From Microcaecilia unicolor (lineage: Eukaryota), in NCBI RefSeq assembly GCF_901765095.1, contig NC_044037.1, positions 104,423,279 to 104,487,278 of the forward strand: a stretch of 64,000 nt of DNA. Reading direction: 5' to 3'. Positions 13,257 through 44,056 of the stretch are shown one piece after another. Position numbers and translations under genes: made by a program. The notes under the pieces are model-generated. The model was given only the letters and a program-made list of their open reading frames with translations. It made no database searches and had not been told where the DNA came from. Numbering within the stretch: the stretch's first letter is position 1; every line of letters starts with the position of its first letter.

Positions 13257-13397
13257 TCACTCCCGTTTATCCTGGCCCCCTGGGAGGGTTTTGGGCAGAA
13301 TCCCTAGTAGCCCACTGGCAGCACTGAAGAGGTTGATTGGTGTTGAGCCATCTGTAATGAGAGTGGAGTGTAGTCCCAGACCCTGCAGTAGCTTCAC
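13257..13397 (-). CDS. MVP: MVP terminal coding exon ([46 protein letters not shown], stop TGA at 13259..13257)
   Basis: Acceptor ttcacag|GTG. Matches human [32 protein letters not shown]. The C-terminal tail is shorter than in mammals. The 3' UTR extends below 13257; no canonical AATAAA was found by eye within about 500 nt. Confidence 0.8.
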
Positions 13398-13509
13398 CTG
13401 TGAAGAGAGAAACAGAAGCCATAACAGCAACAGTTAAACCAGCACAGGCAGCATATCGCCAACACAAAAATCATTCCAGGCCCTCCCCAGTACATCTGCT
13501 GTAGCTCAC

Positions 13510-13698
13510 CTGCAGCTCAGGCCCTGCCAGTGCGATGTCCCGGATGGTCTGCGGCCCAATGGCCTCTGTCATCTGCTGGAACTTTTTCACCTCAATGGCA
13601 GCCAGTGCTTGAGCCTTCTCCACTTCAAGTTTATTTTGCTGGTTGATGTACTGCAGCTCCAGCTCCCGTGCTTTCTTCAGCCGTTCTAGCTCTGCTGT
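13510..13698 (-). CDS. MVP: MVP coding exon 15 ([63 protein letters not shown])
   Basis: Minus ORF 13471..13731. Acceptor cttgcag|ACA, donor CAG|gtgagc. Matches human [62 protein letters not shown]. Confidence 0.9.
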
Positions 13699-13841
13699 CT
13701 GCAAGGGAAGTGGAATAAATATAAATGCCAATTTGTATTAAATTTAAAAGGACAGGGGGGCAGCTGGTCTATAATTTAACCACATGTTTATTCCTGATAT
13801 CACAATGTGGCTGTAACAAGTGGATCTCTTTTCCCTCTCAC

Positions 13842-13968
13842 CGACTCAATTTCCAGTGCTTCAGCCTTCATTTTGGCCTGCTGCACAGCCCCCTCACCCT
13901 CGATCGAGGCTGCCTCCGCCTTTGCCTGCGCCTCCGCCTTGGCTGCGCCTGTGCTCTCCACTACAGTA
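13842..13968 (-). CDS. MVP: MVP coding exon 14 ([42 protein letters not shown])
   Basis: Minus ORF 13800..13982. Acceptor cttacag|T, donor TCG|gtgaga. Matches human [43 protein letters not shown]. Confidence 0.88.
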
Positions 13969-14581
13969 CTGTAAGCAGGCAAGGAAATCAGATTAGAATT
14001 AAGTCAACTTACAAGTCAAAAAGTTACTTATTTTCTTTGCAAACAGAGGACCAGAAGATCAATTTTCTGCACTGTTAAAAACAGCACTGGAACAGCGCAG
14101 GGAACTAACTCCACAATGATCAACACTGCTATGCCAATGTAGGTGCATTATTAGCGTTGATCGGGAGAAACTTATTAAACATTCCAAGAACCCCTGGACC
14201 CCAAGAGGCAAGGCCCTGGGGGCCTAGTACCTCCCCAGCCCCCCCCCCCCCCCCGGACACTGACACCTGGTGGTCTAGTACGCCCCGCCCCGGTGGTCTA
14301 ATGGCCCTGAACCCTCCCCCCCACCTCCGTAACTTTAGGTTCCAGAGGAGGGAGTAAATTTTGCAGACCCTCTGATCATGCCACTCATAGTGCATCAAGA
14401 GAAGGTTCTGTACTGCAACTAATGAGCTCAGACAAATACAGTAATTATCTCACAATTTCAGTAGCGTCGGATAACAGGTGTAATAAAAACACATGCTGAG
14501 CTTAGTATTCTATTATCACTGTGTAGTAACAATTCTTAAGTTAGTGATGTGCAGTGAACTAAGAAATTTTGATCCAGATAC

Positions 14582-14698
14582 CTCAGTGCCTCCAGCTCTA
14601 GCAGCTCCTTCCTGGCTCTCTCTGCCTCAGCTTGGTCTGTGATCTTTTGCCGCTCCAGCCGGCCCCGTGCCTCCTGCTCAAGGCGCTGTGCTTCATGC
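14582..14698 (-). CDS. MVP: MVP coding exon 13 ([40 protein letters not shown])
   Basis: Minus-strand translation. Acceptor ttttcag|G, donor AG|gtatct. Matches human [40 protein letters not shown]. Confidence 0.9.
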
Positions 14699-15194
14699 CT
14701 GAAAATGAGGAGGGAGAAACTGTCATACTTCCATTAAAAGCAATTCAGCATCTGTCAAACAGCAATCACATGCACAAAATCACAACTATCTACCTGCTAC
14801 TCCCCTAAAAGAAAAGGTATCTAAAACTCAGTAGCACTCCTCTTTAAAGGATATAGTTGACAAATTCCCATGTAGAAGGGCTACGCCCTCCCCTTTAAAA
14901 ATATGACTCAGAGAAGCTCCAGAGGTGGAACAGCAGCATTTCAGTGTGTAGAATATGAAAGGGCAATTTTCAAACCCTATTCCAAGAATGAATAGCTGTT
15001 TACCCTATTTTTAGCAGGGAAAATCCCTGCTAAAAATGCACCCCCCCATCAACTGGGTAAACAAGTTCCCAGGCTTAAAAGAGGAGTGGAGTCAGGGTAG
15101 AAAGGGGCCTAAAGGAAAGTCACTGTGGATATCTGCACCTACTAATATGCAGGGGCAAAATGTATATGGGTATACTGTCAGGCATATTTTCAAA

Positions 15195-15282
15195 GCACTT
15201 AGCCTTCCAAAGTTCCATAGGTTTCTATGGAACTTTGGAAGGCTAAGTGCTTTGAAAATATGCCTTTATGTCTGCTGGCCAA
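15195..15282 (+). repeat. About 85-bp perfect palindrome (small MITE); second copy at 34992-35075 inserted in a CR1 3' tail
   Basis: catattttcaaagcacttagccttccaaagttccataggtttctatggaactttggaaggctaagtgctttgaaaatatgcc. The near-identical sequence at 34992-35075 interrupts the CR1 tail AAGAACATAAGAGTAGCCAT..GGGTCAGACCAAGGTCCATCTAGCCCAGTATCC. Confidence 0.8.
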
Positions 15283-15669: not shown

Positions 15670-15881
15670 CGGGCAGTAGCCTCCTGAGAGTTGGTGGTGA
15701 TCTCGATGGCCAGCTGTACACTCTTTTGCAGTGCATCCCGGGTGCGCTGGTCCACAGGCTCCACTGACTGGATGTCCACACTCGTCACCACCAGGTTGTT
15801 CTGTGGGAAACGTAAGGAACTGCGGATCTTGGCAGCCTCGTCAAAACCGAAGACAGCAGAGCAGATGATGCGGCTTGAGTT
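15670..15881 (-). CDS. MVP: MVP coding exon 12 ([70 protein letters not shown] + 2 nt)
   Basis: Minus ORF 15666..15947. Acceptor ctgcag|AAC, donor CG|gtgaga. Matches human [60 protein letters not shown]. Confidence 0.9.
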
Positions 15882-16424: not shown

Positions 16425-16569
16425 CTTGTGGAAGTCATCAAACTGCACCGAGGCTACAGCCCCACGGATGCGAGAAGCAATAGCCTTGCAGGCATCTCCC
16501 ACGAAGTCTGGCACACTGAAGAGCTTAGCAGCTTCTAGAAGGTCATTTTTATCCTTAATGTCAAAGTGC
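16425..16569 (-). CDS. MVP: MVP coding exon 11 ([48 protein letters not shown])
   Basis: Minus-strand translation. Acceptor ttttcag|G, donor AAG|gtaaca. Matches human [48 protein letters not shown]. Confidence 0.9.
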
Positions 16570-16974
16570 CTGAAAATAAGAGATAGAGACGGAGAAAATG
16601 GGGAGAGAAAAAATAATAATACAAAACACCAGGCAGATCAATATTCAGCACAGTTCAAATAGACAGGAGGCATTTACTAACCTGTGTTAGGCAAAGAACT
16701 TGCATTAATGTGCATTAGTTAGTAAATTGGCCACAAGGAGAATAATGGAGCTTGCGCTATATATATCATATCTAATAAAACGCACCTCCAACGTTCTGAA
16801 GCTGACTGCGTGGCTGTTTGGCTGAGGCATTCGTGCGCTGCTCTGCTGTAAGGCTACTGACTGAACGTCACATAGTTCCGGGAACGTCAGCCACAGCACT
16901 GACCAACCGCATGAGGCCCCGCCCCTGCCACAACGCCATGCCCCCCCAGGTTGCCGCCACCAGGCATGCAGGCT

Positions 16975-17260
16975 CGGCCCTTCTCTCTCTGTTAGCTCTG
17001 GTCCCGCCCTCATTTCCTCTTTCCGCAATGAGGGCGGGACCAGAGCTAACACAGAGAGAAGGACCGAGGCTGCACGTCTTTAAACACTGCTTTCCTGGGA
17101 AGATGATTTTTAAAACTTGGAGCGAGTGGGCTCGCCTCCAGCCTTTCCCTTCCCTCACTCAGTGTCCCGTCTTCTTGTGATGATGTATTTCCTGTTTCCA
17201 CAAGGACGGGACACTGTGTGAGACAAGGGAAAGGCTGGAGGCGAGCCTGCTGTGTTGTGT
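16975..17260 (+). repeat. Two adjacent family-A hairpin palindromes (16975-17075 and 17100-17260) in the MVP intron between exons 11 and 10
   Basis: gccttctctctctgttagctctggtcccgccctcat..atgagggcgggaccagagctaacacagagagaagg, and gagtgggctcgcctccagcctttcccttccctcactcagtgtcccgtc..gacgggacactgtgtgagacaagggaaaggctggaggcgagcc. Confidence 0.85.
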
Positions 17261-17472: not shown

Positions 17473-17670
17473 CAGTTGTAGGAGAGCTGGATCTGTAGTC
17501 GGGCATGGTCTGCAGTCTCAATATTGATAATATCTGTACAGAAGTCTGGTCCCAGCAGAAGGCAGATGGATTTGATGACATTGGAGCGTTTTGGCTTCTC
17601 CCCAGAGAGACTGATCACCGTAAACTGCTCGTCTGGTCCAAGAACCACCAGCTCAGGGCCAAAGACCACC
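17473..17670 (-). CDS. MVP: MVP coding exon 10 ([67 protein letters not shown])
   Basis: Minus ORF 17469..17669. Acceptor cctcag|G, donor TG|gtgagg. Matches human [66 protein letters not shown]. Confidence 0.9.
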
Positions 17671-19061: not shown

Positions 19062-19300
19062 CTGGCTTTCTTCTCCCGGTAATCATAGACCTGCACAGTA
19101 GCGTTGTGGGGCACTCTAAAGCAGATGGCACGAGTCTTATCACGGATTTTCTTTTCTCGCTGTGAATGGGATCGATCTGAGCGATCAGCCAGGGGATCTT
19201 TATCCGAGCTCAACAGGGCTTCCACATTTGGGGGCAGCTCCTTCTCCCATAGCTCCTCGTCATGTGTCAGCATGTAGCTGTGGCCTATGACAGCCCTCAC
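19062..19300 (-). CDS. MVP: MVP coding exon 9 ([79 protein letters not shown] + 2 nt)
   Basis: Minus ORF 19058..19411. Acceptor ttcaag|GTG, donor AG|gtaaat. Matches human [64 protein letters not shown]. Confidence 0.9.
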
Positions 19301-19689: not shown

Positions 19690-19875
19690 ATTTTTGTTAC
19701 ATTTGTACCCTGCACTTTCTCACTCATGGCAGGCTCAATGCGGCTTACATGGGGCAATGGAGGGTTAAGTGACTTGCCCAGAGTCACAAGGAGCTGCCTG
19801 TGCCTGAAGTGGGAATTGAACTCAGTTCCTCAGGACCAAAGTCCACCACTCTAACCATTAGGCCACTCCTCCACT
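19690..19875 (-). mobile_element. tRNA-derived SINE
   Basis: This is the reverse complement of the SINE at 21870-22085. It has a tRNA-like head with A box (GGCCTAATGGTTAGAG) and B box (GTTCAATTCCC), then the ..CTTGGGCAAGTCACTTAACCCTCCATTGCC.. body. Confidence 0.8.
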
Positions 19876-19999
19876 CATGAGATCTCAGCAGTACTGTTTG
19901 CTTTTATCTTTCCTTATGTTGATGGACTTCCTTTCAGACAACAGTCCTGACTTTTATATGATACTAGTAAATAAGGCCCGTTTCTGACACAAATGAAAC

Positions 20000-20520
20000 G
20001 GCCGCTAGCAAGGTTTTCCTCGGCTCCCCTGCAGCCACCCATGTCCAGCGACCCTCCTCTCTCCCTGCAGCCACCCATGTCTAGCTACCCTCCTCTCCCC
20101 CTGTGCCCACTGCAGCCACTCATGTCCAGCGAACCTCCTCTCCCCTGCCCCCCCTCCTGCCACCCATGTTCAGTGACCCTCCTCTCTCACCTGCCCCCCC
20201 TCCAGCCACCCATGTCCAGTGGCCCCTCCTCCAGCCACCCATGTTCAGAAACCCTCCTCTCTCCCCTCCCTCCCTGCAGCCACCCCTGTCCAGCGACCCT
20301 CCTCTGTACCCTGCCCCCCCTCCAGCCACCCATGTCCAGCGACCCTCCTCTGGACATGGATCAGCTATGAGGCATGTTTTTTTCCCCCCGGGTTCTGAAG
20401 TTGACATCATAATGGCTACCCTGATGTCAGCCTGATCTACGGAGCCTAGCAGACCAACTCGGAATGAGCCACGGTCCCAGGCAAGTCAGAACATTGGAGG
20501 TGAGAATTATTATATAGGAT
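20000..20520 (+). repeat. Satellite-like tandem array (about 45-bp unit CCACCCATGTCCAGCGACCCTCCTCTCTCCCTGCAG, about 8 copies) plus conserved 3' flank; in MVP intron 8
   Basis: Directly visible periodicity. The 3' flank GATCTACGGA..CCACGGTCCCAGGCA..GGAGGTGAGAATTATTATATAGGAT recurs at 53060-53170. Confidence 0.85.
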
Positions 20521-21869
20521 GTTGTACTCCACATTCTGAACCACAGATTAGTGGTAGATGATTCTATAACCTTTAGTGCCTAAATATAAGTGCCACTTGC
20601 GTGCTAAGATTATGGAATACTAGCACAAATTTAGGCATGTGCTCAGCGGTATTCAATAATGTGACTGCGCAAGTTGCATAAATGCCAAGGGGATGTGCAT
20701 AGGGGGAGGCGCATTGGCGGGATACGTGCATGTCCAAAATACATCACTTCTGCGCTAAAGTGCTACATTTAGGTGCTCACATTTACATCTGCTACTGACA
20801 TGGCATAAGCGGGTGCACCTAAATATACCAATGTACGCTAAGTGGGCATTTCTATAAAGTGCCCCAAATATTAGGTGTGACGTGTGAATTCTGTAACGGG
20901 AACTGGGTGCCCAGATTCCATTAAAGAATACTAGCTGAAGTCGGCATTTACGTACCTACATAATATCTGCATGCAGTTATGCAATGTCTATGGTAGGCGT
21001 ACATGTGTGTGCCTATAAGCAGGAGTTTAGCACGTACAGTAATTGGGGGAATGCCCATGCTTCACCCTCCTTGCATTTGTGCACTATACAAGTTACGCAC
21101 TAAGGGGGTCTTTTATTAAGACCCGCCAGCCAAAGAAATTCAGTGCCTGAGTTGCGCCTCTCCTCTTTGTACTGCTGCTGTAATGCGATAGGTGACAGTG
21201 TGCCTCCAGCCACTGACTCCGGGATTCCCTGAGCATGCTCAGGTCTTAAACAAACATGAGGAAACATCCCAGCGTCAGCAGCTGGAGGCAAACCACTGAC
21301 TTCCTTATTACAGCAGTGGCAACACAAGGAGGAGGGGAGTAGCTCAGGTACTGAATTTCTTAGGCTGGGGGGGCTTCAGTATCCCCACAAGTTGTTTAAT
21401 GGGATGCTGCATGTTTGGAGGGGGCCTGAGCCCAAAGCGAGGGGTCTCCCCCCATGGCTATGGATGGTGTCCAAATTTGTGTGCACGGGCCCAAGATGTG
21501 CATGCAAACTGGGTAACAAGCCCTTAACTAACAATGATTGGGTTCTAACAACCAATTATTGATATTGATGGGCACTCATTAAAATTTGCACATGCATCTG
21601 GCTGCGTGCTATTCTAGAAGACATGGCACCTAGCTCTACCAATATGCAGCTCAAAAGGGAAAAGTGACCGTGTGTGTTGGGGCATTCCGAAAAGTTACAC
21701 CCATACTTAAAGAATATGGTCTCAGCACACCTAATTTGGACACTGGCATTTCCATCAGGTTTCATCAGGCGTAAGTCTGGCACGCCCTTTATAGACTTGC
21801 GCTTAGCGTCCATTTTTTTATGATGCCGAATTTTGAGCGCCATTTACTGAATCCAGCCCCGACTGCACA

Positions 21870-22085
21870 AATGGAGTGGAGGAGTGGCCTAGTGGTTAGA
21901 GCACCGGTCTTGCAATCCAGAGGTGGTTGGTTCAAATCCCACTGCTGCTCCTTGTGATCTTGGGCAAGTCACTTAACCCTCCATTGCCTCAGGTACAAAC
22001 TTAGATTGTGAGCCCTCCTGGGACAGAGAAATATCCAGTGTACCTGAATGTAACTCACCTTGAGCTACTACTGAAAAAGGTGTGA
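21870..22085 (+). mobile_element. tRNA-derived SINE
   Basis: Head GGAGTGGCCTAGTGGTTAGAGCACCGGTCTTGCAATCCAGAGGTGGTTGGTTCAAATCCCACTGC shows pol III A and B boxes. Body is TTGGGCAAGTCACTTAACCCTCCATTGCCTCAG..., ending in an A-rich tail. Confidence 0.8.
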
Positions 22086-23089
22086 GCAAAATCCAAATAA
22101 ATAAAATTTAGGCACTCACATTACAGAATGAGGTGGTTCAATTCATGATCTGTATAGCACTGGTACAAGTCTGTCTAACCATCTCAGCACTGAATAGTGC
22201 TGGGGCAGCCTTAGGGGTGTAGCAACTATTATACATATAGCAGTAATCAGCTGCCATTGGTGCTGACAACATGTGTCATTAACTCAGCGCTGCCACCTAT
22301 CCATATTTTCTAAGTGCCATGGATGGCATTTAAAAAGCTGCAAGCACTGCCATTGCTTAAAAGCGATCATTTAATGTTTGTATAGTACCTAGGAGTTGAT
22401 AAACACAAATGTTAATTGAAAGGCAGTTTACTATTATTTAAGTTTTCACAGCTCAAAACTATTCACAGAGGAGAGAGCTGCCCTGTACAAGGAGAGATAA
22501 ACACTTGTGGACCACTTCACTAGGTGAAAGACCAATGATTTAAGAACCCTAGAGCTAGAGAATGACACAGGGACATGGATCTGTGATAAACCGCAGTAAT
22601 CCACAGTAAATCCGCGCTAAAAGAAAAAAAATCTAGCCGTTTACCGCTGATGTGGGAGCAAAACTTTTACCGCCCCACGGGAGCAGTAAAAAAAACTTTG
22701 CTCTCGCGGTTTAAAAAAACAAAGTTGCAGTTACCATTTCCGGTCCAGCATCTCCGTGACTGCCTTCCTCCCTCTCTCCCGCAGTAGCTCTACCTTATGC
22801 AGCCAGACAGTGGTGCGCTGGAGCTGGCTCGTATGAGCAGTTTGTTAATTTTTTAAAAATTTTGGGAGCCGGTTGTTAAACTAACAACCGGCTTCCAAAA
22901 TTTGGGCTCAGGTCCCTTCTCAGCATCTTTGTCCTCCTCCTCCCCTGTGGCTTGTTCCAGTGGCGTAACTACAGGGTGCCTCTGTCTCAGCACCCCCCCC
23001 CCCCCCCAACAATAGTGCCCAGACAGGTGGTTTTTTGCTTTCTCAGGCTCCCTATGCTCCTTGTCCTCACAGTCAGACAGCTGAGCTCT

Positions 23090-23345
23090 CCCTCCCTTCC
23101 TTCGGTTCCGGCCGGCTATCTCTCCTCCCTGTTTCCAGCAGTGAGCCGCGGCGCGGGCAGCGTTGAAGACAGCTGCTTCCGGCTGCCCTGTTCCCATCGC
23201 TGCTTCATCCTGCCTTTTCAACTTCCTGTGAGTGGGACGAAGCAGCGAGACAGACCTGGACAGCCAGAAGCAGCTAACTTCAGTGCTGCCCGCGCTGCGG
23301 CTTACTGCTGGAAACAGGGAGGAGAGATAGCCGGCCAGACCCGAA
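23090..23345 (+). repeat. Palindromic element (arms GGCCGGCTATCTCTCCTCCCTGTTTCCAGCAGTGAGCCGCGGCGCGGGCAGCGTTGAAG)
   Basis: 23105-23165 is the reverse complement of 23275-23340. This explains the two overlapping opposite-strand ORFs of about 200 aa (22853..23458 and 22952..23545). Confidence 0.75.
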
Positions 23346-24546
23346 GAAAGGGAGGAAGAGCTCAAATACCTGACTGCGGGGACAGGGAGCCTCAAAAGAA
23401 AGCAACCAAACCTGTGAGCTACTTTTTCCACGTTCTTGTTCTTTATTGTTGGTACCATTTTTATTTGATCCCACTTATATTTTCAAACATGCCAGCTTGT
23501 GCAGCATACGCATATACACACAGAGGAAGTATAATAACAGAATAACTTTTCATAGGTAGAGTAGTAATTTGCTATAAATTGTAATCAGTGTGTGATTTGG
23601 AGGGACTGGTTATAGAGACCCACGTGTGTGTGTGGGGGTGCTGCAGTGGACCCACGGAAAGGGAGGGGGCTGCTGGACCCGAAGGGGTTGCTGAAGAGAA
23701 GGGAGAAAGACACTGGACCACTGAGGTGAGGGAGGGCTGGCTGGACGGAAGGGAGAGAGGCACGCTGGACCCTTGGGGAGCTAGGGCTGGAGGAAAGAGA
23801 GAGGTGCTGGACCTGTAGGGGAGGAAGGGACACAGAGGGAAGATGCTAGACATCAGGGAACATAGGAATGCATAAGGGAGATGCTGGACATAGGTGGAGG
23901 GTATAGGGATAGGCTAAGGGCTCTCTCTGGCCAGGGGGCAGATGTCCTAGTTGCACCTCCCTAACACCATCTCTGGCATGTGTGATCTTTATATTTTGCA
24001 TCGTATAGGAGGAAATGTATATCTTTCTATTTCTGTGGTGTGGCTTCTTGTAGTTTTACATTAATATATGTTTATCATTTTTGGTCAGCTATTGGCATTT
24101 GTGTTCTGTGGGTGGGGGGGGGGGGGGGGGTGGCTGAGGTATTCTGTTAGCAAGAATTTTCTATGTAGCATTCTGTAGTAATTTGGCTTGTTCAGTTTTC
24201 CTGATAGTGGAGGGGATATTTGTGAGGGGAGACGGGGATTTTGTTGACCCTTGTTCTGTATTGTTTGTGATTTATAAAACAGTTATAAAAAGAAACAATA
24301 TTCTGTACATGTTAATAAAATGATTTAAATATAAAAATCAGAATGAGGCTTGGGGATGGGGCGGGGACAAGGAAACATTTTGTCCCCACGTCATTCTCTA
24401 CCTAGAGCCCTCCTAACAGCAAAGACCTGAGTAGCAGCTATACAGATAACCATATTACATCATCATATTAACACCAGATCCATCCCTGCTTTATCATCTT
24501 CTAGGAGCAGGGACTTTGCTGAATGCACTCTCCTCTTTCCCCTCAC

Positions 24547-24705
24547 CTTGCCAGTTTTGATGTCTCTCACATAGATACCCTCATTCTCATTCAGGGGGAT
24601 AGCCTCCCTGGTCAGCATCACTTCTACTTCCACAGGAGGCACATATTCCATAGGCCCCCGAATCATCCAGCGGTCTCCAGGCTTCCTTTCCACATCATTC
24701 CCGTC
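24547..24705 (-). CDS. MVP: MVP coding exon 8 ([53 protein letters not shown])
   Basis: Minus ORF 24463..24693. Acceptor gcatag|GAC, donor AAG|gtgagg. Matches human [47 protein letters not shown]. Confidence 0.88.
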
Positions 24706-25294: not shown

Positions 25295-25420
25295 CTCATC
25301 CTTCTCTTCCAGGCACTCCAAGGCTTTCAGCACCAGCCCCTCCTCCTCTGATAAGATGTACACATTCTGGATCCCGTTCTCCAGGTACTCCCCAGGCTGC
25401 AGGAAAAAGGATTTCTCCCC
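25295..25420 (-). CDS. MVP: MVP coding exon 7 ([42 protein letters not shown])
   Basis: Minus-strand translation. Acceptor ctacag|GGG, donor GAG|gtaagt. Matches human [43 protein letters not shown]. Confidence 0.88.
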
Positions 25421-30185: not shown

Positions 30186-30317
30186 CTGTCACCCGGTCAT
30201 GTCCCTCCCGGTCCTTGCACTCCTTCCGTGCTCTCAGCCGGATGGCTTGGTTGTGGTGGATCACTGTAGCCTGAATGGTCTCTACCACCTCCACCTCCTT
30301 CCGTGGAATATATGTCC
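30186..30317 (-). CDS. MVP: MVP coding exon 4 ([45 protein letters not shown])
   Basis: Acceptor ctccag|GG, donor ACAG|gtaaac. Matches human [44 protein letters not shown]. Confidence 0.9.
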
Positions 30318-30654: not shown

Positions 30655-30990
30655 CAATCAGTACATAAGAACATAAGAATAGCCACACTGGGGCAGACTG
30701 ACAGTTCATCTAGCCCAGTATCCTGCTTCCAGAAGTGGCCAATCCAGGTCACAAATACCTGGAAGAATCCCAATTAGTAGCAAAATTCCATGCTACCAAT
30801 ACCAGGAACAGCAGTGGCTTTCCCATGTATCGCAATAGCAGACTACGGATTATTCCTCCAGGAACTTGTCCAAACTTTTTTTAAACCCAGATACGCTAAC
30901 TGCTGTTAGCGCTGTTACCACACCCTCTGGCAACGAGTTCCAAAGCTTAACAATTCATTGAGTGAAAAAGTATTTCCTCCTATTTGTTTA
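30655..30990 (-). mobile_element. CR1-like LINE 3' end fragment (3' tail plus short C-terminal ORF2 remnant), reverse orientation
   Basis: 30660-30770 aagaacataagaatagccacactggggcagactgacagttcatctagcccagtatcctgcttccagaagtggccaatccaggtcacaaatacctgg is the reverse complement of the CR1 tail at 4130-4330. Minus-strand ..KLWNSLPEGVV-like coding remnants follow at 30840-30990. Confidence 0.75.
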
Positions 30991-31199
30991 GTATTACATG
31001 TAACTTCATTGTCCCTTAATCTTTGTACTTTTTGAAAGAATAAATTGATTCATGTTTACCCAATCTACAACAGGATTTTGAAGACCTCTGTCATCCCCCC
31101 TCAGCTGTCTCTTTTCCAAGCTAATCTGTTTAGCCTTTCCTCATACAAGAGGCATTCAATCGGAGGCACTGGTAAGCACCAAGACCAATGACAGCATAA

Positions 31200-31930
31200 G
31201 GAGTGAGCTCTGAGGAATCTCATAAAAAGCAGGGGCGTAGCCACGGGCGGGCCTGGGCCCACCCAATTTTGGGTCAGGCCCGCCCAGCAGCAAAGTTCCT
31301 GACGGTGATTCCAGTCGCAGGCTCCGCTCGCACTCGCAGCGATTCCCACACGCTGCCTGCCGGCTGCCGCTCAATCTCCTTGCGCTACTAAGCGCTAACC
31401 CGGAAGTCTCTTCTCTGCAGCAGAGACTTCCAGGTTAGCGCTTAGTAGCGCAAGGAGATTGTTGAGCGGCAGCCGGCAGGCAGCGTGTGGGAATCGCTGC
31501 GACTGCGAGCGGAGCCTGCGAGTAGAATCGCCGTCAGGAACACTGCTGCTGGGCGGGCCTGCAAGGAGGGTGAGATGCTGCAGCTGCACGGGGGGGAGGG
31601 AAGACGGGGGACACAGCAGCTGATGGAAAGAAAGATGCTGCACAGGGGGGAGGGAAGATGGAAAGATGAGGCTTGGTTGGTGAGTGAGGGAGATGCACGG
31701 GGAAAAAGGGAGAGATGCAGCAAAGGGGTGGAGGGGTGAGGAAGGGAGAAGTCTTGGCTGTGTATGAGGTGGAGGGGAGGGACACATGCTGCATACAGAG
31801 GGGATAGGTGGGGAGGGGGAGAAATTGTGGGTATAGTGGTGGAGGGAGGGCGGAGCAGAGAAAATTTTGTGCCCACCCAGTTTGGGCTCAGGCCCACCCA
31901 AAACTGGCTGTCTGGCTACGCCACTGCTAA
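31200..31930 (+). mobile_element. TIR-bounded non-autonomous element: about 60-bp terminal inverted repeats (GCAGGGGCGTAGCCACGGGCGGGCCTGGGCCCACCCAATTTTGGGTCAGGCCCGCC) with an internal 270-bp perfect hairpin and an AG/CT-rich body
   Basis: 31220-31275 is the reverse complement of 31865-31925. The internal palindrome 31290-31560 is centred on aagtctcttctctgcagcagagactt. TIR-like half-sites with adjacent CT-rich sequence also occur at 780-850 and 1200-1270. Confidence 0.7.
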
Positions 31931-33289
31931 AAAGACTCTTTTTCCAACCTAATTTGTGAGTTAAATGTTGCTGCACCAGTTTTGTTAGCATTTATAGTAT
32001 GTTATTTGGGAAAACTTTTAAAACAGAGGTGGCAAATTCCTTTTCTATCAAAAGTAAAAGACACAAAACCCGAGCCTCTATCCTCACAAAAAATGGCATC
32101 TGGCAAACTGGAAGAGCAGTAGTGTGCTGGAGCTGACTCGCACCGGCTCACAAGAGCTGGCTGTTAAAAAACACTTTGTGAGGCGGTTGTTGAACAGGCT
32201 GGTACACAGTGGTGTACAGTGAACATCTGTTTTTTTTTCTCCCCACTAAAGGTAACAGCATCGTCCTCATCTCTCCCTCCTCTATCCCCCCCCCCCCCCC
32301 CCACGAGTCCAGCACACCTCTCAACTTTCAATTACTCTTCCAGCTGCACTAGCAGTAACACTACCTGGCCAACTCGGAGTCATTTCTCTGCCAGATCCCG
32401 CCCACACGTAAACAGAAAGTTGCATCAGTGGGCCAGGACATGGCAGAGAAAAGGCTCCAGGTCGGCCAGGTAGTGTATTATCACTAGTGCTGATGGATGA
32501 GTAGTGATGTTTGAAGGACAGCCGGTGATTGGGGGTGGGGGGGTGGGGGGAAGCCCAACCTAAAGCTTAAAGCCCACCTCTTTGCTACTGCTTTCGACTC
32601 CTAACCATGACTCACTTATCACCCCTACCACTGCAATTTCCCCACCCCTAGCTGTCTGTTCGTCTGTCCAATTTAGATTGTAAGCTCTGTTGAGCAGGGA
32701 CTGTCTTTTCATGTTAATTTGTACAACGCTGCGTAAGTCTAGTAGCGCTATAGAAATGTTTAATAGTAGTAGTAGTAGTAGGAAGGACTGGACTTGTGAA
32801 GTAGGGTAAAAGATTTGTTTTTTTTTTGGGGGGGGGGGCTGGGGGAGAAGTGTTGGATTTGCAGGTGAGGGGGAGAGGAGAGATATTGGACTTTTGAGGC
32901 GCACTGGGGCAGGAAAAATGCCAGACAATAGATGAGGAAACCAGGGAGAGAGAGGGGAGATGCTGGGTGAGGGGTGGGAGAGAGTGATTAAGAGAGAGAT
33001 GCTGGACTGTGGGATGCAGGGAAGAGAGGAAGAGAGATGCTGGGCCTACAAGCACATGCGACTATAGAAATCCAAACACTGCTCCTTCCCGAATTGTGTA
33101 GGCACTAAACCACATTTAGCAAGCTTTCACTTCTAATATGCTATTTACTGCCTACATGGATAGGCTAGGTTTCCTGCAGCCTCTCTCCCCTTGAAGCCAC
33201 TGCCTGAAAGAACATTAAAGCTGCATTTTTTTTCAGGGGGAGGGAGGAGGAAGGGGAGGACAGGGAGCTGCTGGACCATAGGGGATGAA

Positions 33290-33312
33290 AAGAGAGAGAG
33301 AGAGAGAGAGAG

Positions 33313-33343
<31 letters not shown>

Positions 33344-34959: not shown

Positions 34960-35175
34960 CATAAGAACATAAGAGTAGCCATAGGGGCTCATTTTCAAAG
35001 CACTTAGCCTTACAAAGTTCCACAGATTACAATGTAACTTTGTAAGTCTAAATGCTTTGAAAATACGCCTCATACTGGGTCAGACCAAGGTCCATCTAGC
35101 CCAGTATCCTGTTTTCCAAACAGTGGCCAAGCCAGGTCACAAGTACCTGGCATAAACCCAAATCATGGCAACACT
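34960..35175 (-). mobile_element. CR1 3' tail fragment (reverse) interrupted by the 85-bp palindrome
   Basis: aagaacataagagtagccatagggg[palindrome]tactgggtcagaccaaggtccatctagcccagtatcctgttttccaaacagtggccaagccaggtcacaagtacctggc. Confidence 0.75.
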
Positions 35176-35689
35176 CCATACTACAAATCCCAGGGCAAGC
35201 AGTTGTTAAACATTTACCAGAACACCACTGCGGAAGAAATATCACTGGAAACCATTATGACTGAAATACAGGCAATTAAAGAACTCATTGCTGATGCTAA
35301 AAAGGACACTGCTGAAATAAAATTAGAACTGCTCTAAAAAGTAATATGGCTGTCTTTCACACCGGGATGGATATGCAGCTGTCACTGAGCCAGGCTGGGC
35401 TGCTCTGGTCTCTCCATCAATCAAAGTGTTTCAGGTTGGATGGCTATTTGTATTTTGTTTGAATGTATTGTAAGCCTGAATTGTTTACTACATCTTTGCA
35501 TTTTGGATTTTAAATTTTTTTAAAAACTTCTACAAATTAAACAGAGAAAAAAAAATCAAATACTCAAATCATACAGAATCAAATTCATAAATAAATCTTA
35601 AGAGGATATCTTTAAAAAAATATTAAAAGAAAAACATGTTAGATCCATGCATAAAATACATAATGTAGCCAAAACAAGTAATGAAGATA

Positions 35690-35865
35690 CATCGGGGTCC
35701 TTTTACTAAGGTGCTATAATGGATTTAGGGTGTGCACCAAAGATTAGCATGTGCTAAATGACATGCCAATTATATTCTTATGGGCATCTTATTTAGCACG
35801 CTCTAAATCTGTTAGTGCACCTTAGTAAAAGGACCCATAGGTAAAAGGTACATGCTAATGTGCAG
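35690..35865 (+). mobile_element. MITE (GGGGTCCTTTTACTAAGGTGC TIRs), related to 48035-48425
   Basis: Perfect terminal inverted repeats of about 21 bp are visible in the sequence. Confidence 0.75.
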
Positions 35866-36039
35866 CTGATAAACAGAATTCTGCTGAATCGTGAGCTTGA
35901 CAGTGGCATAGTGAACAGATCAATATAACAATATCCAGTAAGTCGTGGTGTATCATAGTACATGTATATACCTGGTTATGCTAGTATTCTAAATATGCAC
36001 CTATTTTCCTTTATACAATGGCTACCTATATAGTAACAT

Positions 36040-36335
36040 AGTAAATGACAGCAGATAAAGACCTGTACAGTCCATCCAGTCTGCCCAACAAGATAAACTC
36101 ATTTTACATGGTATGCAATACTTTATATGTATACCCAAGTTTGATTTGTCCTTGCCATTCTCAGGGCACAGACTGTAGAAGTCTGCCCAGCACTCTTCTT
36201 GTTCTGAAGCTAACGTCGAAGCCCCTTAAAATTTACACTCAAGCCCATCCATATCCATTCAGTCACAACCAGGACGTAGACCGTAGAAGTCTGCCCAGCA
36301 CCGGTTTTGCTTTCCAATTACTGGCGCACTATTGT
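36040..36335 (-). mobile_element. LINE family 2 3' tail fragment (reverse)
   Basis: gtaacatagtaaatgacagcagataaagacctgtacagtccatccagtctgcccaacaagataaactca..ggcacagactgtagaagtctgcccagcac. This is the reverse complement of the 55700-55900 tail, including the GGGCAGACTT..GTCTGTGCC motif twice. Confidence 0.75.
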
Positions 36336-36455: not shown

Positions 36456-36579
36456 CAGGACCCTCAAAGAGCCACTCATCTCCTGCTACAAACTTGTCCC
36501 CAGCATCATCCTCAAAATCGAGCAGCGCCTTCAGATGTAGGGCAGTGTTTGCAATGACAATCTTCAGGGGTGTGATGCC
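36456..36579 (-). CDS. MVP: MVP coding exon 3 ([41 protein letters not shown] + 1 nt)
   Basis: Acceptor cacacag|GGC, donor G|gtgagt. Matches human [41 protein letters not shown]. Confidence 0.9.
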
Positions 36580-37086: not shown

Positions 37087-37282
37087 CTGTTTCAGCTCCT
37101 CGCCTGGATAGAGTGGAAAGGGGTCCTGAGCAAGCCGGACCTCCAGGTCACCGTGACGCAAGCGAGCCTGTCCTGCATCATCAAAGAGCAGCTGCTTTTC
37201 TGCATCTCGAGCCACTGGATTCTCAATGATGCAATAGTGCCGCGGTGGAACCAGCACCATCTTCACTGGAGTGAACAACACC
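37087..37282 (-). CDS. MVP: MVP coding exon 2 ([65 protein letters not shown])
   Basis: Acceptor ctcag|G completes the split Arg codon from exon 1. Donor is CAG|gtaacg. The sequence matches the MVP repeat-domain region [28 protein letters not shown]. Confidence 0.9.
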
Positions 37283-37479
37283 CTGAGCAAGAAGAGTCAA
37301 AAACAGACCATTATGAGGAACAAGACATATGAAAGCAAATTTTAGATACAATGTAGATATCGGAACTGAGACATCCAGGTCAGGATGTCTCAAATTCCAC
37401 TAGCGTTTTACAAAATGGCTCTGCCGACGTAATCTTTTCTAAATTCATGTAGGAACAATGATGGATACTTATAGCCAGG

Positions 37480-37870
37480 GCCGCTGAAAGGGGGGAGGGG
37501 GGGCAGGAGGGACCCGGCGCCGCAATCCCCGATCTCACCCGCCCTTGGCTCCGTCGACTGTCCGCCACTGGGCCGGGCCCCCCGCATTGAAATCATTACA
37601 GCGCCTCACCTGTCACCTCGCTCTGTGACTGAAAGCGCAGCAGCGGCAGATCGGATTCGCCTCCCTTCGGGCCTTCCCTCCCTGTGTCCCGCCCTCGTGT
37701 GATGTAACTTCCGTGAGGGCAGGGCACAGGAAGGGAAGGCCCGAAGGGAGGCGAATCCGATCTGCGGCTGCACTTTCAGTCAGGGAGCGAGGTGACAGGT
37801 GAGGTGCTGTAATGATTTCAATGCAGGGGGCCCAGCCCAGTCTCTCGGTGGCCCTGCTTATAGCCCGCTA
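37480..37870 (+). repeat. Family-B long palindromic element in MVP intron 1 (same loop family as 12230-12780)
   Basis: Arms ..cattgaaatcattacagcgcctcacctgtcacctcgctc..gcagcggcagatcggattcgcctcccttcgggccttccctccctgtgtcccgccctcgtgtgatgtaacttccgtgagggcagggcacagg.. pair with their reverse complement at 37735-37830. Confidence 0.85.
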
Positions 37871-40849
37871 CTCTCCCTAAAACTAGGCTCAGCGTGGGTT
37901 AACAAAAGAAAAACTATGAGACTGATTGTTTCTGGAAACAAAAAGATGAAGATGCTCCAATATCTACAGGAAGTGCATTCCAATATTTAGTCATGCAAAA
38001 TAATGCAGACTTTTCCTGAAAACCTTTAAGTTTGATTCCTCTAAACGAAGGAACTCTCAGCATAAGATGGTAGAGAACATTATTCTTGTAGCTATCATAT
38101 AAATAATGTGACTAATGAAGTCAGATGAGAAGGGCAAAAGCCCTCTAAAATCATAACAACAAAGCAACATATTTTTAAAAGTATTCTTGCTCTTATTGGA
38201 AGCCGATGCAGTTCAACCAACTAAGGAGATACATGGTCATACTTAGCTTGGCAAAAAATTAGCCTAGCAACTGTATTCTGGATCTAATGTAACCTTTGCA
38301 GTTGTTTTTCTGCGATTCCTACATACAGAGAATTACAGTAGTCTAGTTGCGACAACATCAACAGCTGTACCAACACCTTAAAATGGCTCGGGAAAAAATA
38401 AGAACAGACCAGCCATAGCTGTTCCAGCTTAAAGACCTTTTGTGACAGATTTTTAATCTGAGCATCCATAGTCATAGTAAAGTCTAGGATAACCCCTAGC
38501 ACTCTTCTTTTACGATCTACAATCAACTGAGATCCATTGAAACATGAGACATAATTTGGAATATTAGTCTCACTTACACCATACCATAAAATCTTTGTCT
38601 TATCTGCATTTAGTTGAGCTTAACAAAGACCAAACACTTAATTTCCTCCATACAGTAACTGATTTTAGTAAACAAGCTATCTTGAGATAATCCAGTTGAA
38701 ACCAATACGAAAATATGATATGCTGGCTACATGTGGTGGCGGCAGCATCCATTTGCAAACATTGGTGTCTACAGTATTGTCACGGTCACCCCAGTGCTCC
38801 CTTACCTCCGTGTCAGGGCCCAGTGTGACAAGCTCTGCTGCCCTCCGACCTGCTCTTTCCTCCGACCTTCCTACAGCTGTGCATGCTCGTTTGGTGGAGG
38901 CTGGATGGGGGTTGGCGCTGCTCAGGCCCGTCCCTCACTGACATCATCACCCTGGGCCTTCTTCTGCAGTTGCTACTCTGCTTTGCAACAGGTCATCCTG
39001 GTTCCAGCTTCCAGCACAGCTTCAGATTCCAGCCTTGGTTCCAGCTCAGCTTCTGCTTCCTGCCCTGGTTCCAGCCTCCAGCTCAGCTTCAGCTTCCAGC
39101 CTTGGTTCCAACTCCAGCACAGCTTCAGCTTCCAGCAAAGGTCCTGGTTCCAGCTCCAGCACAAATTCAGATTCAGTTCTGGGTACAGCTTCCTTCAACG
39201 CCTCTACTGGAGCAATCCCTTCTGCAGGGACTCGTCCGCCGTTTGCTACAGTCTGTCTGTCCCCTGGGCAGGCAGGCACTACTGTTCCACTACAGTCCTA
39301 GGGCTCACTCATCCTAAATCGTGACATATGTATGTGCCGTGTTGCCTCTGTTGATATATCTATGTTTTCCAAGCTCACAGAGTCCAATATCATTTGCCAC
39401 CACTTTTGAGGGGGATAAAAATACTAGGGGATTTAGGGGACAATATCCCCTAATCCCTACTGTAGAATACTGCACAAAATGAGCACCTTTAAAGAACTTA
39501 GATGTCCCCAGGAGTAGCTGTGAATCCTGATGTTAATCTTGAAAAACCGCACAAGCCAAAAAAAAAAAAGGGGGGGGGGGGGGGTCAAAGCCACCATATC
39601 TGTTTTATAACAGAAGTGTGTGTGTATGTGTTCATATATATAGTTGCATATGGTTTACCTTCATACAGGACCCCTGACGAAGGCTACTTTGCCGAAACAC
39701 AGCTCGTGTCTAGTTTTGCCTGTATGGACTATTGATGAATAAACTATTTGGAACATTAAACCTGTATGTCCTTGAAATTTGTTGTCTTTTGACCTGTGGG
39801 TTTGGAGGCTTCCATCCCTTTTTCAGCTTGTGCAGTGCAGCTTCTTGTGGAAGTGTTTTGCTCTTCTTTTTGTTTTTTTCTCTGATCTTGGAGAACAAAT
39901 AGGTATTCCATTTCTAAAATGGGGAATATATGAGTATATATTAACCCCAACCTAGTCCCACTCAAAACACATCCAGACCATGCCTCCTCACCACATACAT
40001 GTACTCTCAATCTGGACATGTATATCCCAGTTTTCTAAAACTGGGATTTAGACATGTATATGATAAACATGTCTAAGTGCCAGTTTATAACCACCTTTAA
40101 TTTATATGTAACTTTTTATGTGCAGTGTGCTTGATTTATTACCCCAAGAAACTGATTCCTGTTATGAACTGTATCTTTTGGATCTTTTACCGCACTGAAG
40201 ACCTCAATAGATTTTTTTTTTGTTGTTGTTATTTTCCTCCCACCTTCTTCCAAATTATGTTTTGAAGAAAGCCACAGCAGAATCAGAAGACGGCGTCCTT
40301 TTAGTGTTACTGCTTCTCCTCCCCTCATTCTAATGTGACAAGACTGTTGGGTCTCAGACAGTGGTGTGCTGGTAAATGTTTAACAACAAGCTCTCTCCAC
40401 GGTCCACCTCTGCGCCCCCCCCCCCCCCCCCACATCTACCTCTGCACCCCCCCAAATTGTAGAGCTGGCTATAGCCGGGGAAAGAGCCGGGGGGGGGGGG
40501 GGGGGGGCAATGCATTACTCTCTCCAGGAAAAAAAAATTAAATGATCCCAGGTTCCAATCTAATTCATGTTTAATGTGGGATAAAATGCCATAAATAAAT
40601 AAATATAAACTTTTAATGTTCAGCACCTGATTTTCAAAGTGGACATATTCCAAGCACTATAATGAAAATAAAATGATTTTTTTCTACCTTTGTTGTCTGA
40701 TAACTGTTTTTCTGATCATGCTGGCCCAGTATCTGATTCTGCTGCTATCTGTCCTCTTAACTTCGTTTCCAGGGCTTCCTTTCCATTTATTTCTTTACTT
40801 TCCGCCTTTCTTCATCATTTCTTGCCCTACATCCGTAAGTAAAAACTGT

Positions 40850-41400
40850 GTCCTCCGCAGACTTGACTGTCCAGCATTTCTTCTCTCTCTCCCTTCCCTC
40901 TCCTCCATCCATGTCCAGCATTTTTCCTGTCTCCCCTCCATTCCTCTCTCTTCCCTCCCCTCTATCCATGTGCAGCTCCTTCCTGTCTTCCCTCCATCCA
41001 CCCATGTCCAGCAAACCTCCTCTCTCTCCTGCCCTCCTCTCCATCCACCCATGTCCAGCAACCCTCCTCTCTCCCCTGCCCTCCAACTATCCATCCATAC
41101 CCAGCAATTCTCTTCTCTCCCCTGACCCCCTTTCCATCCATACCCAGCAATTCTCTTCTCTCCCCTGACCCCCTTTCCATCCATACCCAGCAATTCTCTT
41201 CTCTCCCCTGACCCCCTCCCATCCATCCATACCCAGCGATTCTCCTCTTTCCCCTGCCCTCTCCTCCCGCTCCCATCCATGTCCAGCAATTCTCCTTCGC
41301 CCCCGCCCTCTCCTCCCACTCCCATCCATGTCCAGCGATTCTCCTTCTCCCCCATCCTCCCCTCCCATTCATATTTCACCTGCCCGCCCTCTTCTCCCCC
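40850..41400 (+). repeat. Satellite-like tandem array, same family as 20000-20370 (units ..CCATCCATGTCCAGCAA(T/C)CCTCCTCTCTCCCCTGCCC..; later units CCATCCATACCCAGCAATTCTCTTCTCTCCCCTGACCCCCTTT); in MVP intron 1
   Basis: About 11 tandem units are visible. This explains the large overlapping ORFs on both strands (40795..41433, 40962..41372). Confidence 0.85.
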
Positions 41401-41499
41401 CAACATCCCCCTTTTTCTTCCTACCAGTGCCACCCTGTGTGATTTAAATCTTTTTTATTACTTCCGTCGAAGTGGCCGCGTCATTGAAAGCCCTGCCTG

Positions 41500-41640
41500 T
41501 CTCTAGCCTTCCCTTCGTGAGTTTGTTCCCTCAGAGTCCCGCCTTCTGACCTCATTTCCTCTTTTCGCAAGGGCGGGACTCTGAGGGAACGAACTCACGA
41601 AGGGAAGGCTAGAGGCAGGCAGGGCTTTCAATGACGCGGC
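41500..41640 (+). repeat. Family-A hairpin palindrome in MVP intron 1
   Basis: gcctgtctctagccttcccttcgtgagtttgttccctcagagtcccgcc..ggcgggactctgagggaacgaactcacgaagggaaggctagaggcaggc. Confidence 0.85.
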
Positions 41641-42034
41641 CGCTTTGATGGAGGTAATAAAAAAAGATTTAAAACCACACAGGGCGGTGCGGGGCGGGAA
41701 CAGGCAAACGAGGGCTGTGGGAGGTGAGGTAAGCGGGGTAAGCATGGTTTGTGGCGCCCTCCTGCCACGCTTACCTCGTTTACTGGAGCCGGCTCGCAAG
41801 ATCTTAAAAACAAAACAAAAAACTTAACAACCAGCTCTTGCAAGCCGGTGCGAGCCGGCTCCAGCACACCACTGGTCTCAAGCTCCCATAGCACAGACTT
41901 TCTTAAGAGCTGACGACACAAATGCCCGTCCCAGGAAGGAGGTCCTCAAGGACACTTTTAAGCAGGCTCCAGAGCCCCCCCCCCCAACACACCCACAGCA
42001 CATACCCCACAGTGACAACTGAGATTGCACTTAC

Positions 42035-42156
42035 CGCTCATTGTCCTGTCGGATGTAGGTCTTGGGCCCAGTTTCCACACGAGAGATGTTGTTGTTCTGG
42101 TCTAGCACATGGATAAAGTGGAAGGGGGGAATACGGATGATAGCTTCTTCACTCAT
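42035..42156 (-). CDS. MVP: MVP coding exon 1 (start codon ATG at 42156..42154; [40 protein letters not shown] + 2 nt)
   Basis: Minus-strand ORF 42031..42249 contains [30 protein letters not shown], a near-identical match to the vertebrate major vault protein N-terminus. The exon ends CG followed by donor gtaagt. A polypyrimidine tract plus AG acceptor at about 42184-42200 upstream implies this is not the first exon of the transcript. Confidence 0.9.

Positions 42157-44052: not shown

Positions 44053-44056
<4 letters not shown>

Follow-up and report, generated by a model that had tools for sequence, protein, structure and literature searches.

Major vault protein in the caecilian Microcaecilia unicolor: an intact 16-coding-exon gene with repeat-bearing introns

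Introduction

The closest described systems to the present locus are the human and rat major vault proteins (MVP), known from solved vault structures (11dr, 4V60, 4HL8, and 7PKR), the human MVP gene, and the MVP locus of a second caecilian, Rhinatrema bivittatum (GCA_901001135.2, LR584392.1). The human gene was reported with 15 exons, carries its ATG in the second exon, and has a TATA-less upstream region with a GC box; MVP expression has been described as diverse and inducible, not strictly housekeeping (PMC7916137). The MVP gene of M. unicolor, its product, and the genome are all already published and annotated (GCF_901765095.1; PMC10195157), and there is nothing novel in the gene itself. 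Here, a 64-kb stretch of this genome (the window) was analyzed and compared with the 41-kb Rhinatrema locus, following up an earlier interpretation made from the letters of the window (the sequence-only reading).

Results

Structure of the MVP Gene

A tblastn search with an MVP guide gave 16 collinear blocks on the minus strand. The guide served solely for exon location, and the conclusions given below were drawn from database proteins. An independent junction search was restricted to introns running from GT to AG and to frames free of stops, and the splice finder reproduced the deposited Rhinatrema product exactly. The spliced model comprises 16 coding exons on the minus strand, from the ATG at 42156 to the stop ending at 13257, with a CDS of 2559 nt encoding 852 amino acids plus a TGA stop. 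Coding exon 1 (42035–42156, 122 nt) holds the ATG at 42156–42154, ends at the donor CG/gtaagt, and extends upstream as 5'UTR. It is followed by exons 2 (37087–37282, 196 nt), 3 (36456–36579, 124 nt), 4 (30186–30317, 132 nt), 5 (27893–27987, 95 nt), 6 (27561–27797, 237 nt), 7 (25295–25420, 126 nt), 8 (24547–24705, 159 nt), 9 (19062–19300, 239 nt), 10 (17473–17670, 198 nt), 11 (16425–16569, 145 nt), 12 (15670–15881, 212 nt), 13 (14582–14698, 117 nt), and 14 (13842–13968, 127 nt), each equal in length to its Rhinatrema counterpart. Exon 15 (13510–13698, 189 nt) contains a 23-residue peptide quoted in the sequence-only reading, and the coding part of exon 16 (13257–13397, 141 nt) has its TGA at 13259–13257, with the 3'UTR running on to lower coordinates. 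The sequence-only reading had given the same start, end, exon count, and ORF length as this model, and its exon boundaries, which it feared to be off by a few nucleotides, lie in the same place to the base. Its canonical splice sites and consistent phases were borne out (all 15 introns are GT..AG), its intron total of roughly 26 kb was measured as 26,341 nt, and both of its quoted peptides match the translated product exactly. The spliced model gives a continuous MVP ORF, free of frameshifts and stops at the junctions. This by-eye reconstruction of a 16-exon vertebrate gene was thus accurate to base level.

Identity of the Product

The product is identical to the NCBI entry "major vault protein [Microcaecilia unicolor]" (100% identity, 100% coverage); the NCBI/RefSeq annotation gives the same locus and the same 852-residue product, and the coding part shows no difference. 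The present analysis adds to it a candidate non-coding exon 1 with a promoter block and a repeat map. Tandem N-terminal vault repeats followed by a shoulder domain were found by Pfam, namely Vault (2e-66, in 4 stretches), Vault_2 (3.3e-38), Vault_3 (6.9e-35), Vault_4 (2.2e-22), and MVP_shoulder (3.5e-53; residues 517–635, profile positions 1–118 of 118), all exceeding the curated cut-offs by far. Residues 2–847 align as one stretch to positions 3–859 of a solved 893-residue MVP chain (1366 bits), further alignments were obtained with 4V60 and 4HL8 (chains of 861 residues), and the cap fragment 9z5n_B matches residues 740–843. The product is therefore collinear over its full length, including the cap-helix/cap-ring part, with the solved human and rat chains (1351–1366 bits), whose domain order is the same, as the sequence-only reading had maintained. 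The human protein has 893 residues as against 852 in the caecilian; its tail at the C-terminus is longer, and the shoulder region carries an insertion. The M. unicolor protein consists of vault repeat domains at the N-terminus, then a shoulder domain, a long cap-helix, and the cap-ring tail, and from the homologous rat and human particles of known structure its vault shell may be predicted to be built from 78 copies of MVP.

Comparison with Rhinatrema

The Rhinatrema gene also has 16 coding exons, with equal phases and 15 of the 16 lengths identical; its last coding exon is 3 nt shorter (138 nt). The two proteins are 88% identical, and dN/dS was evaluated to be 0.115 at dS = 0.575. These values, together with the common exon lengths and the identical annotated product, indicate orthology in this locus-level comparison. 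The introns behave differently. Introns 5 and 14 are short in both species with conserved size, whereas intron 1 measures 4752 nt in M. unicolor and 495 nt in Rhinatrema, two further introns measure 6138 versus 966 nt and 5246 versus 1521 nt, and intron 10 measures 903 versus 11,791 nt. Such large differences between the two caecilians fit lineage-specific insertion. The intron totals (26.3 and 18.5 kb) are of the same order of magnitude.

Transcript Ends

The 5'UTR part of the ATG exon is predicted at 42157–42184 on the minus strand (28 nt), preceded by a polypyrimidine tract and the acceptor ctctccag/TGACTTCC. Since this acceptor lies 28 nt before the ATG, the ATG exon would not be the first exon; Rhinatrema likewise has an acceptor 28 nt ahead of its ATG. 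Further upstream, a block at 42859–43375 (minus strand) shares 69% identity over 536 nt with Rhinatrema and is a candidate for promoter plus exon 1. It contains a near-invariant 30-nt core, CTGTAGGTGAAAGGGCCTTGCCCAcGCCCTC, at 43253–43283, which includes a GC/CACCC-type box. Its conservation points to a candidate non-coding exon 1 at 43016–43250 (minus strand), whose 3' end at 43016 is the donor GGGAAG/GTAAAC shared with Rhinatrema and whose 5' limit is nominal. The gene thus probably begins with a non-coding exon and has a TATA-less promoter, both lying 0.7–1.2 kb upstream of the ATG. In this respect it would resemble the human gene, in which the ATG also lies in the second exon downstream of a TATA-less region with a GC box, though the exons would total 17 in M. 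unicolor as against 15 in human (PMC7916137). At the other end, the first canonical AATAAA after the stop, at 12060–12065 on the minus strand and 1191 nt downstream, may be the poly(A) signal, in which case a hairpin at 12424–12704 would fall inside the 3'UTR.

LINEs, Short Repeats, and Minisatellites

At least three intronic LINE 3' fragments, in agreement with the earlier claim, were recognized by their similarity to ORF2 (the reverse transcriptase protein) or to the 3' tail, with E-values computed against in-window ORFs having a Pfam-confirmed RT domain. A CR1-like 3' fragment in intron 3 (30660–31145, minus strand) shows C-terminal ORF2 similarity (30835–31122, E 2.5e-15) and an approximately 130-nt 3' tail common to other copies. 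The same intron has a piece of 3' tail from a second subfamily of CR1-like LINEs (36014–36209, minus strand, E 1.6e-10). The 3' half of a LINE in intron 1 (37917–38616, minus strand; E 2.4e-5 for 38242–38616), which we take to be L2-like, has the motifs ..LDYCNSLY.. and ..KYWNALP.., and the CR1 and L2 names are motif readings as distinct from Dfam or Repbase matches. These intronic CR1/L2 pieces match the C-terminal part and 3' tail of a master-like copy at 2570–4060, in which Pfam detects RVT_1 (E 1.4e-55) and the C-terminus is of CR1 type; the pieces themselves have no Pfam-detectable domain.

Two short repeats, both multi-copy and both in intron 3 on the minus strand, correspond in number to the two SINEs claimed earlier. 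The one at 32564–32776 is an interspersed repeat of about 150–230 nt, with other copies at 10924–11081 and 49079–49305 and one in the Rhinatrema locus, and the one at 35071–35203 has only the tail of the CR1-type 3' end and is either a SINE or an extremely 5'-truncated LINE. The copies stand, while the label SINE is a guess for both: no Pol III promoter head (tRNA, 5S, or 7SL) was detected; ARAGORN predicted no tRNA gene, and Rfam, at gathering score, returned no match. The same two programs over the window gave no vault RNA, snoRNA, miRNA, or tRNA-derived SINE head. Three minisatellite arrays were mapped, exceeding the two satellite arrays claimed. Those at 20026–20352 in intron 8 (unit of about 44–46 nt, about 7 copies) and at 40887–41367 in intron 1 (about 43–49 nt, about 10 copies) are one family, and a tandem array with an 18/36-nt unit lies at 38997–39174 in intron 1. 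A separate, unrelated element at 62683–62875 has a clean 8-bp TSD and a CAGTG.. TIR, and is likened to the hAT MITEs of vertebrates.

Pfam searches of stop-to-stop ORFs of at least 60 residues gave only the MVP domains and two RVT_1 matches. This screen covered nearly the whole window, all but the last ORFs at about 55.9–56.3 kb, and at this ORF length it found no neighboring gene, whose short exons would escape it, and no DNA-transposase or LINE domain within the introns.

Hairpin Palindromes

At least 11 hairpins were mapped in the gene, more than the at least eight palindromes reported earlier; as the repeats had been claimed without coordinates, they were compared by counts only. Four of the hairpins, all in plus orientation, share a GTCCCGCC core. 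Two are in intron 1, a CpG-rich one at 41430–41687 (116-nt arms, 91% complementary) and one at 37567–37841 (130-nt arms, 91% complementary; DNA fold −150.7 kcal/mol, z −27.5), and two are in intron 10, at 17129–17247 (51-nt arms) and 16967–17074 (48-nt arms, 94% complementary, with exact GTCCCGCCCTC..GAGGGCGGGAC). Intron 3 contains a hairpin at 31275–31561 (143-nt arms, 92% complementary, 4-nt loop), a degraded one at 32285–32551 (124-nt arms, 74% complementary, with a C-run and a G-run at its bounds), and an inverted-repeat element unrelated to the core family at 35695–35836 (41-nt arms, 60-nt loop). The others are a hairpin adjoining a G20 run in intron 6 (26441–26642; 98-nt arms, 93% complementary, 6-nt loop), a plus-strand hairpin (23056–23390; 156-nt arms, 84% complementary) and an inverted repeat (21118–21376; 111-nt arms, 78% complementary) in intron 8, and a perfect palindrome in intron 12 (15180–15265; 41-nt arms), which is related to 34974–35070. 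Upstream of the ATG exon, a further hairpin lies at 44224–44608.

The core family has at least eight copies with the consensus ..GCCTTCCCT..GTCCCGCCCTC-(GTGTGATGTAAC or TTCCTGTTTCCGC)-GAGGGCGGGAC..AGGGAAGGC.., and nearly all of them lie in one orientation over at least 56 kb. The center is conserved and promoter-like, with GC boxes around ETS-, E2F-, and CRE-like motifs, while the arms range from 48 to 186 nt and the outer ends vary among copies. These hairpins account for every CpG-island-like segment within the 64 kb, and none occurs in the 41-kb Rhinatrema locus. In the GTCCCGCC-core copies, neither a TSD nor fixed termini of the MITE/foldback kind were seen. An origin as LINE 5'UTR or 3'UTR parts was rejected from their positions, which are inconsistent with those of the LINE fragments, and one as DIRS inverted terminal repeats was rejected because such ITRs do not lie next to each other. 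The literature search gave nothing specific on hairpin or MITE families of caecilians. That the CpG-rich palindromes constitute an undescribed repeat class specific to the Microcaecilia lineage is a tentative and rather unlikely reading.

Discussion

The locus is almost certainly a single, functional, protein-coding MVP gene on the minus strand, with copy number read at this locus only. An unprocessed pseudogene or a recently inactivated paralogue could still have an open frame, yet the 852-codon ORF is intact over 16 exons with every splice site canonical, the low dN/dS against Rhinatrema was maintained over a dS of 0.575, the exon lengths, flanking intron sequence, and upstream block are all conserved, and the identical product is entered at NCBI as MVP. 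A non-functional copy is hence left with next to no probability, and this reading is close to refuted. The hairpins raise another doubt, as the assembly was built from long reads, and missed adapters in long reads can create palindromes. Adapter or foldback chimeras of this kind are nevertheless an extremely unlikely source of the hairpins: the arms are 74–94% complementary, the elements (100–385 nt) are internal to a chromosome-scale record, and an asymmetric loop and an inner-arm consensus are conserved in at least eight copies, beside older, degraded ones. Imperfect arms, a shared consensus, and degraded copies are together characteristic of a repeat family that is evolving.

The sequence-only reading had further described the introns as transposon-dense. 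Repeats are indeed present, and introns 1, 3, and 8, at 5–10 times their Rhinatrema length, carry most of them; the enlarged introns and the at least 11 hairpins in 29 kb would favor an exceptional colonization of the locus, with exons needing special protection. However, the demonstrable repetitive share of intron bases is about 23%, a lower bound computed without a species repeat library, versus 69.3% genome-wide (PMC10195157), so the locus is not unusually colonized. Moreover, the intron totals of the two caecilians are of like order, and hairpins and LINEs are equally frequent in the flanks and inside the gene across the window. Exceptional colonization is very improbable, ordinary selection being sufficient with no other feature needed, and the locus is typical or below average in repeats and not remarkable. 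The same reading had taken the locus to show how a housekeeping gene stays intact amid repeats. Its intactness is upheld by dN/dS and by the 16 coding exons, in which no base was flagged as repeat, but the locus-specific meaning gives way to generic purifying selection. The introns have very probably grown in a lineage-specific manner by insertion of the 3' ends of CR1/L2-type LINEs, of short interspersed repeats and minisatellites, and of palindromic elements, and the ORF has remained intact because insertions into exons or splice sites were eliminated by purifying selection.

Overall, this is a real, correct, and already known gene, and the result matters little: in a genome of 4.7 Gb with 69% repeats, it is normal for a conserved gene to be intact and for its introns to carry repeats. 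The candidate 5' exon and promoter, the intron-size turnover between the caecilians, and the oriented CpG-rich hairpin family are by-products of modest use for annotation and for caecilian repeat research. If the hairpin family is a true lineage-specific class, it could propagate through a hairpin mechanism that is strand-specific (coupled to transcription or replication), or give rise to scattered CpG-island-like promoters or hairpin RNAs.

MVP Gene Model and Protein Identity

A tblastn search of the window with a major vault protein (MVP) guide gave 16 collinear minus-strand blocks from 42153 to 13272. The exon boundaries were then determined by an independent junction search that allowed only GT donors and AG acceptors, kept the frame open, and scored the candidates against the guide. 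This placed coding exons 1–8 on the minus strand at 42156–42035, 37282–37087, 36579–36456, 30317–30186, 27987–27893, 27797–27561, 25420–25295, and 24705–24547, and exons 9–16 at 19300–19062, 17670–17473, 16569–16425, 15881–15670, 14698–14582, 13968–13842, 13698–13510, and 13397–13257. Joined, they form a CDS of 2559 nt, namely 852 codons and TGA, which is interrupted by 15 introns, all GT..AG, summing to 26,341 nt. The sequence-only reading had described a complete 16-coding-exon MVP gene, and its start, end, exon number, ORF length, canonical splice sites, and both quoted peptides were all reproduced exactly by the junction search; the finding is real and was interpreted correctly.

The product matches the 852-aa NCBI entry "major vault protein [Microcaecilia unicolor]" at 100% identity and 100% coverage; next in rank are the proteins of Rhinatrema bivittatum (88%), newts and frogs (80–84%), and coelacanth and lungfish (79%). 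It contains the full MVP architecture in Pfam (Vault ×4, Vault_2, Vault_3, Vault_4, and MVP_shoulder), and its residues 2–847 align in one stretch to an 893-residue solved MVP chain (1366 bits), as well as to the 861-residue chains of 4V60, 4HL8, and 7PKR. The 4.7-Gb M. unicolor genome (GCF_901765095.1) is published and NCBI-annotated (PMC10195157); its annotation already includes the MVP gene, and nothing about the locus stands out.

Comparison with Rhinatrema MVP

The same junction finder, applied to the orthologous locus of the caecilian R. bivittatum (L001; GCA_901001135.2, LR584392.1), exactly reproduced the deposited product, with exons of 122, 196, 124, 132, 95, 237, 126, 159, 239, 198, 145, 212, 117, 127, 189, and 138 nt. 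Fifteen of the 16 lengths are equal in both species, whereas the last exon is 141 nt in Microcaecilia. The Nei–Gojobori estimates were dS = 0.575 and dN = 0.066, and the resulting dN/dS is 0.115. The gene is functional and strongly constrained by purifying selection; it is no pseudogene. Intron sizes, in contrast, have turned over strongly between these two caecilian families: introns 1, 3, 6, and 8 are 3–11 times as long in Microcaecilia (4752 vs. 495 nt for intron 1, 6138 vs. 966 for intron 3, and 5246 vs. 1521 for intron 8), while intron 10 measures 903 nt vs. 11,791 in Rhinatrema. Turnover of this kind is expected if neutral introns gain and lose sequence by insertions and deletions specific to each lineage.

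A polypyrimidine tract with an AG acceptor (ctctccag|TGACTTCC; exon start 42184) lies 28 nt upstream of the ATG, and Rhinatrema has an acceptor at the same distance, which suggests that the ATG is located in exon 2, as in human MVP. Further upstream, 42859–43375 aligns with the collinear Rhinatrema region (L001 8980–9484) at 69% over 536 nt (E = 8e-44), and a second, non-coding match joins 43397–43480 to L001 8005–8090. The former block includes an almost invariant 30-mer (43253–43283) that carries a GC/CACCC-type box, and a conserved donor, GGGAAG|GTAAAC (GT at 43015–43014), which would place the end of a non-coding exon 1 at 43016. The block has no evident TATA box and is not a CpG island (GC ≥ 0.5, CpG o/e ≥ 0.6). 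This conserved sequence, a candidate promoter plus non-coding exon 1 as judged from its conservation, matches the type of the human MVP promoter, which is TATA-less with a GC-box (PMC7916137). The 3′ end is putatively marked by the first AATAAA past the stop, at 12065, 1191 nt downstream.

Repeats in the Introns and Flanks

Bases were flagged as repetitive when they lay in a tandem array or hairpin, matched a LINE, resembled another part of the window, or matched the Rhinatrema locus out of synteny. These flags covered 6130 of the 26,341 intron bases (23%, a lower bound since no species repeat library was used), mostly in introns 1, 3, 8, and 10, and not a single exon base. Repeats make up 69.3% of the whole genome, led by LINEs and then DIRS elements (PMC10195157), and by this comparison the MVP locus is ordinary in repeat load for M. 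unicolor. The introns described as transposon-dense thus do hold repeats, but at ordinary density. Likewise, the ORF is intact amid these repeats, as the sequence-only reading stated, and purifying selection suffices to explain this.

LINE fragments were searched by tblastn using the LINE ORFs of the window at 2570–4060 (497 aa; RVT_1, E = 1.4e-55) and 54276–55885 (RVT_1, E = 9.4e-23). Three 3′ fragments were found in the gene, at 30835–31122 (extended to 30660–31145 by DNA similarity), 36014–36209, and 38242–38616, the last continuing to 37917 with a ..KYWNALP.. C-terminus. Tandem Repeats Finder located minisatellites in intron 8 (20026–20352, unit ~45 nt; alternative bounds 20016–20351) and intron 1 (40887–41367, unit 43–49 nt; alternative bounds 40868–41372), an array with an 18/36-nt unit (38997–39174), plus a stretch of (AG)n at 33291. 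Both minisatellites and a short array upstream of the gene (52757–52812) constitute one family with a ~44-nt unit, CCAGCCACCCATGTCCAGCGACCCTCCTCTC.. An inverted-repeat search gave at least 11 hairpins inside 13257–42156, one of which folds at −150.7 kcal/mol (z = −27.5). The earlier counts of at least 3 LINE fragments, 2 satellite arrays, and at least 8 hairpins were hence equaled or exceeded (at least 3, 3, and at least 11). The count of 2 SINEs is equaled by two short multi-copy elements at 32564–32776 and 35071–35203, which are SINE-like or tail-only LINE copies; their SINE label is unproven because neither a tRNA-like head nor an Rfam family was found for them.

A 130-nt inverted pair (19746–19876 and 21874–21995), 2 kb apart in intron 8, brackets the minisatellite and a hairpin at 21118–21376, and may represent the terminal inverted repeats of a ~2.2-kb DNA transposon. 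A perfect palindrome with 41-nt arms and a 4-nt loop (AGGCATATTTTCAAAGCACTTAGCCTTCCAAAGTTCCATAG / reverse complement) at 15180–15265 and its diverged copy at 34974–35070 form a separate small foldback family.

Human MVP has close neighbors. Pfam analysis of stop-to-stop ORFs of ≥60 aa, covering almost all 64 kb, detected only MVP domains and two LINE reverse transcriptases, and the flanks (1–13256 and 42157–64000; 35 kb) showed no neighboring gene within ~13 kb downstream or ~22 kb upstream at this ORF length, which short exons would escape. The intergenic space hence seems expanded relative to human. CR1-like LINEs occupy 1393–4322, 9439–10099, and 54276–55885. The first comprises two head-to-tail copies that share 79% identity across 1.26 kb, an older one (1393–2630) and a younger one whose RT-containing ORF at 2570–4060 is uninterrupted; another 5′ end of this type lies at 63931–64000. 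L2-like remnants were located at 45410–47545 (minus) and 51339–53744 (plus), the latter retaining an endonuclease N-terminus (..INARSVVNK..DLLFISETW..) and broken at 51955–53165 by a hairpin of the core family described below, tandem repeats, and the 44-nt minisatellite. A clean hAT-type MITE (62683–62875; TIR CAGTGGTTCTCAACC.., 8-bp TSD TTCTACAT on both sides) matches L001 7311–7450 at 70%.

An Oriented CpG-Rich Hairpin Family

At least eight hairpins, at 12424–12704, 16967–17074, 17129–17247, 37567–37841, 41430–41687, 44224–44608, 51955–52062, and 56140–56442, share the inner-arm and center consensus ..GCCTTCCCT..GTCCCGCCCTC-[GTGTGATGTAAC|TTCCTGTTTCCGC]-GAGGGCGGGAC..AGGGAAGGC.. (core family). 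Looser relatives occur at 23056–23390, 26441–26642, 31275–31561, and 32285–32551, and CpG-decayed old copies near 28, 1028, and 4894. In the window, the core 11-mer appears 12 times against 0.6 expected and the loop 16-mer 7 times against 0.5, six of them on the plus strand. Judged by eye, the asymmetric loops of ~12 of 13 informative copies point in the same direction, on the plus strand and antisense to MVP; this unexplained bias spans at least 56 kb, inside and outside the transcription unit.

The arms are 48–186 nt long and 84–94% self-complementary, and several elements are bounded by C-runs and G-runs. Long G/C homopolymer runs (10–20 nt) are also frequent in the window, often at the outer ends of palindromic elements (e.g., 26460–26480, 32285–32300, 32535–32551, 56125–56150, 22985–23000, and 24115–24135). 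As the arms vary in length, the outer arms differ between copies, and no target-site duplication or fixed ends were found on these hairpins, no transposon superfamily could be assigned.

The mean CpG o/e of the window is 0.34, and its CpG-rich 400-nt windows (GC ≥ 0.5, CpG o/e ≥ 0.6) all overlie hairpin elements except two marginal ones (50501–50900 and 52501–52900). The island-like segments on hairpins are 16701–17100, 23101–23500, 26101–27000, 31001–31700, 37201–38000, 41101–41900, 44001–44900, 51701–52200, and 55901–56700. In our own reading, the hairpin center resembles putative GC-box, ETS, E2F, and CRE sites. The orthologous 41-kb Rhinatrema locus contains no core-family hairpin. Most likely, the family is a repeat of recent activity that lacks a classification and that the de novo library of the species already contains; this oriented, CpG-rich hairpin family is the sole thread of the locus that merits follow-up.
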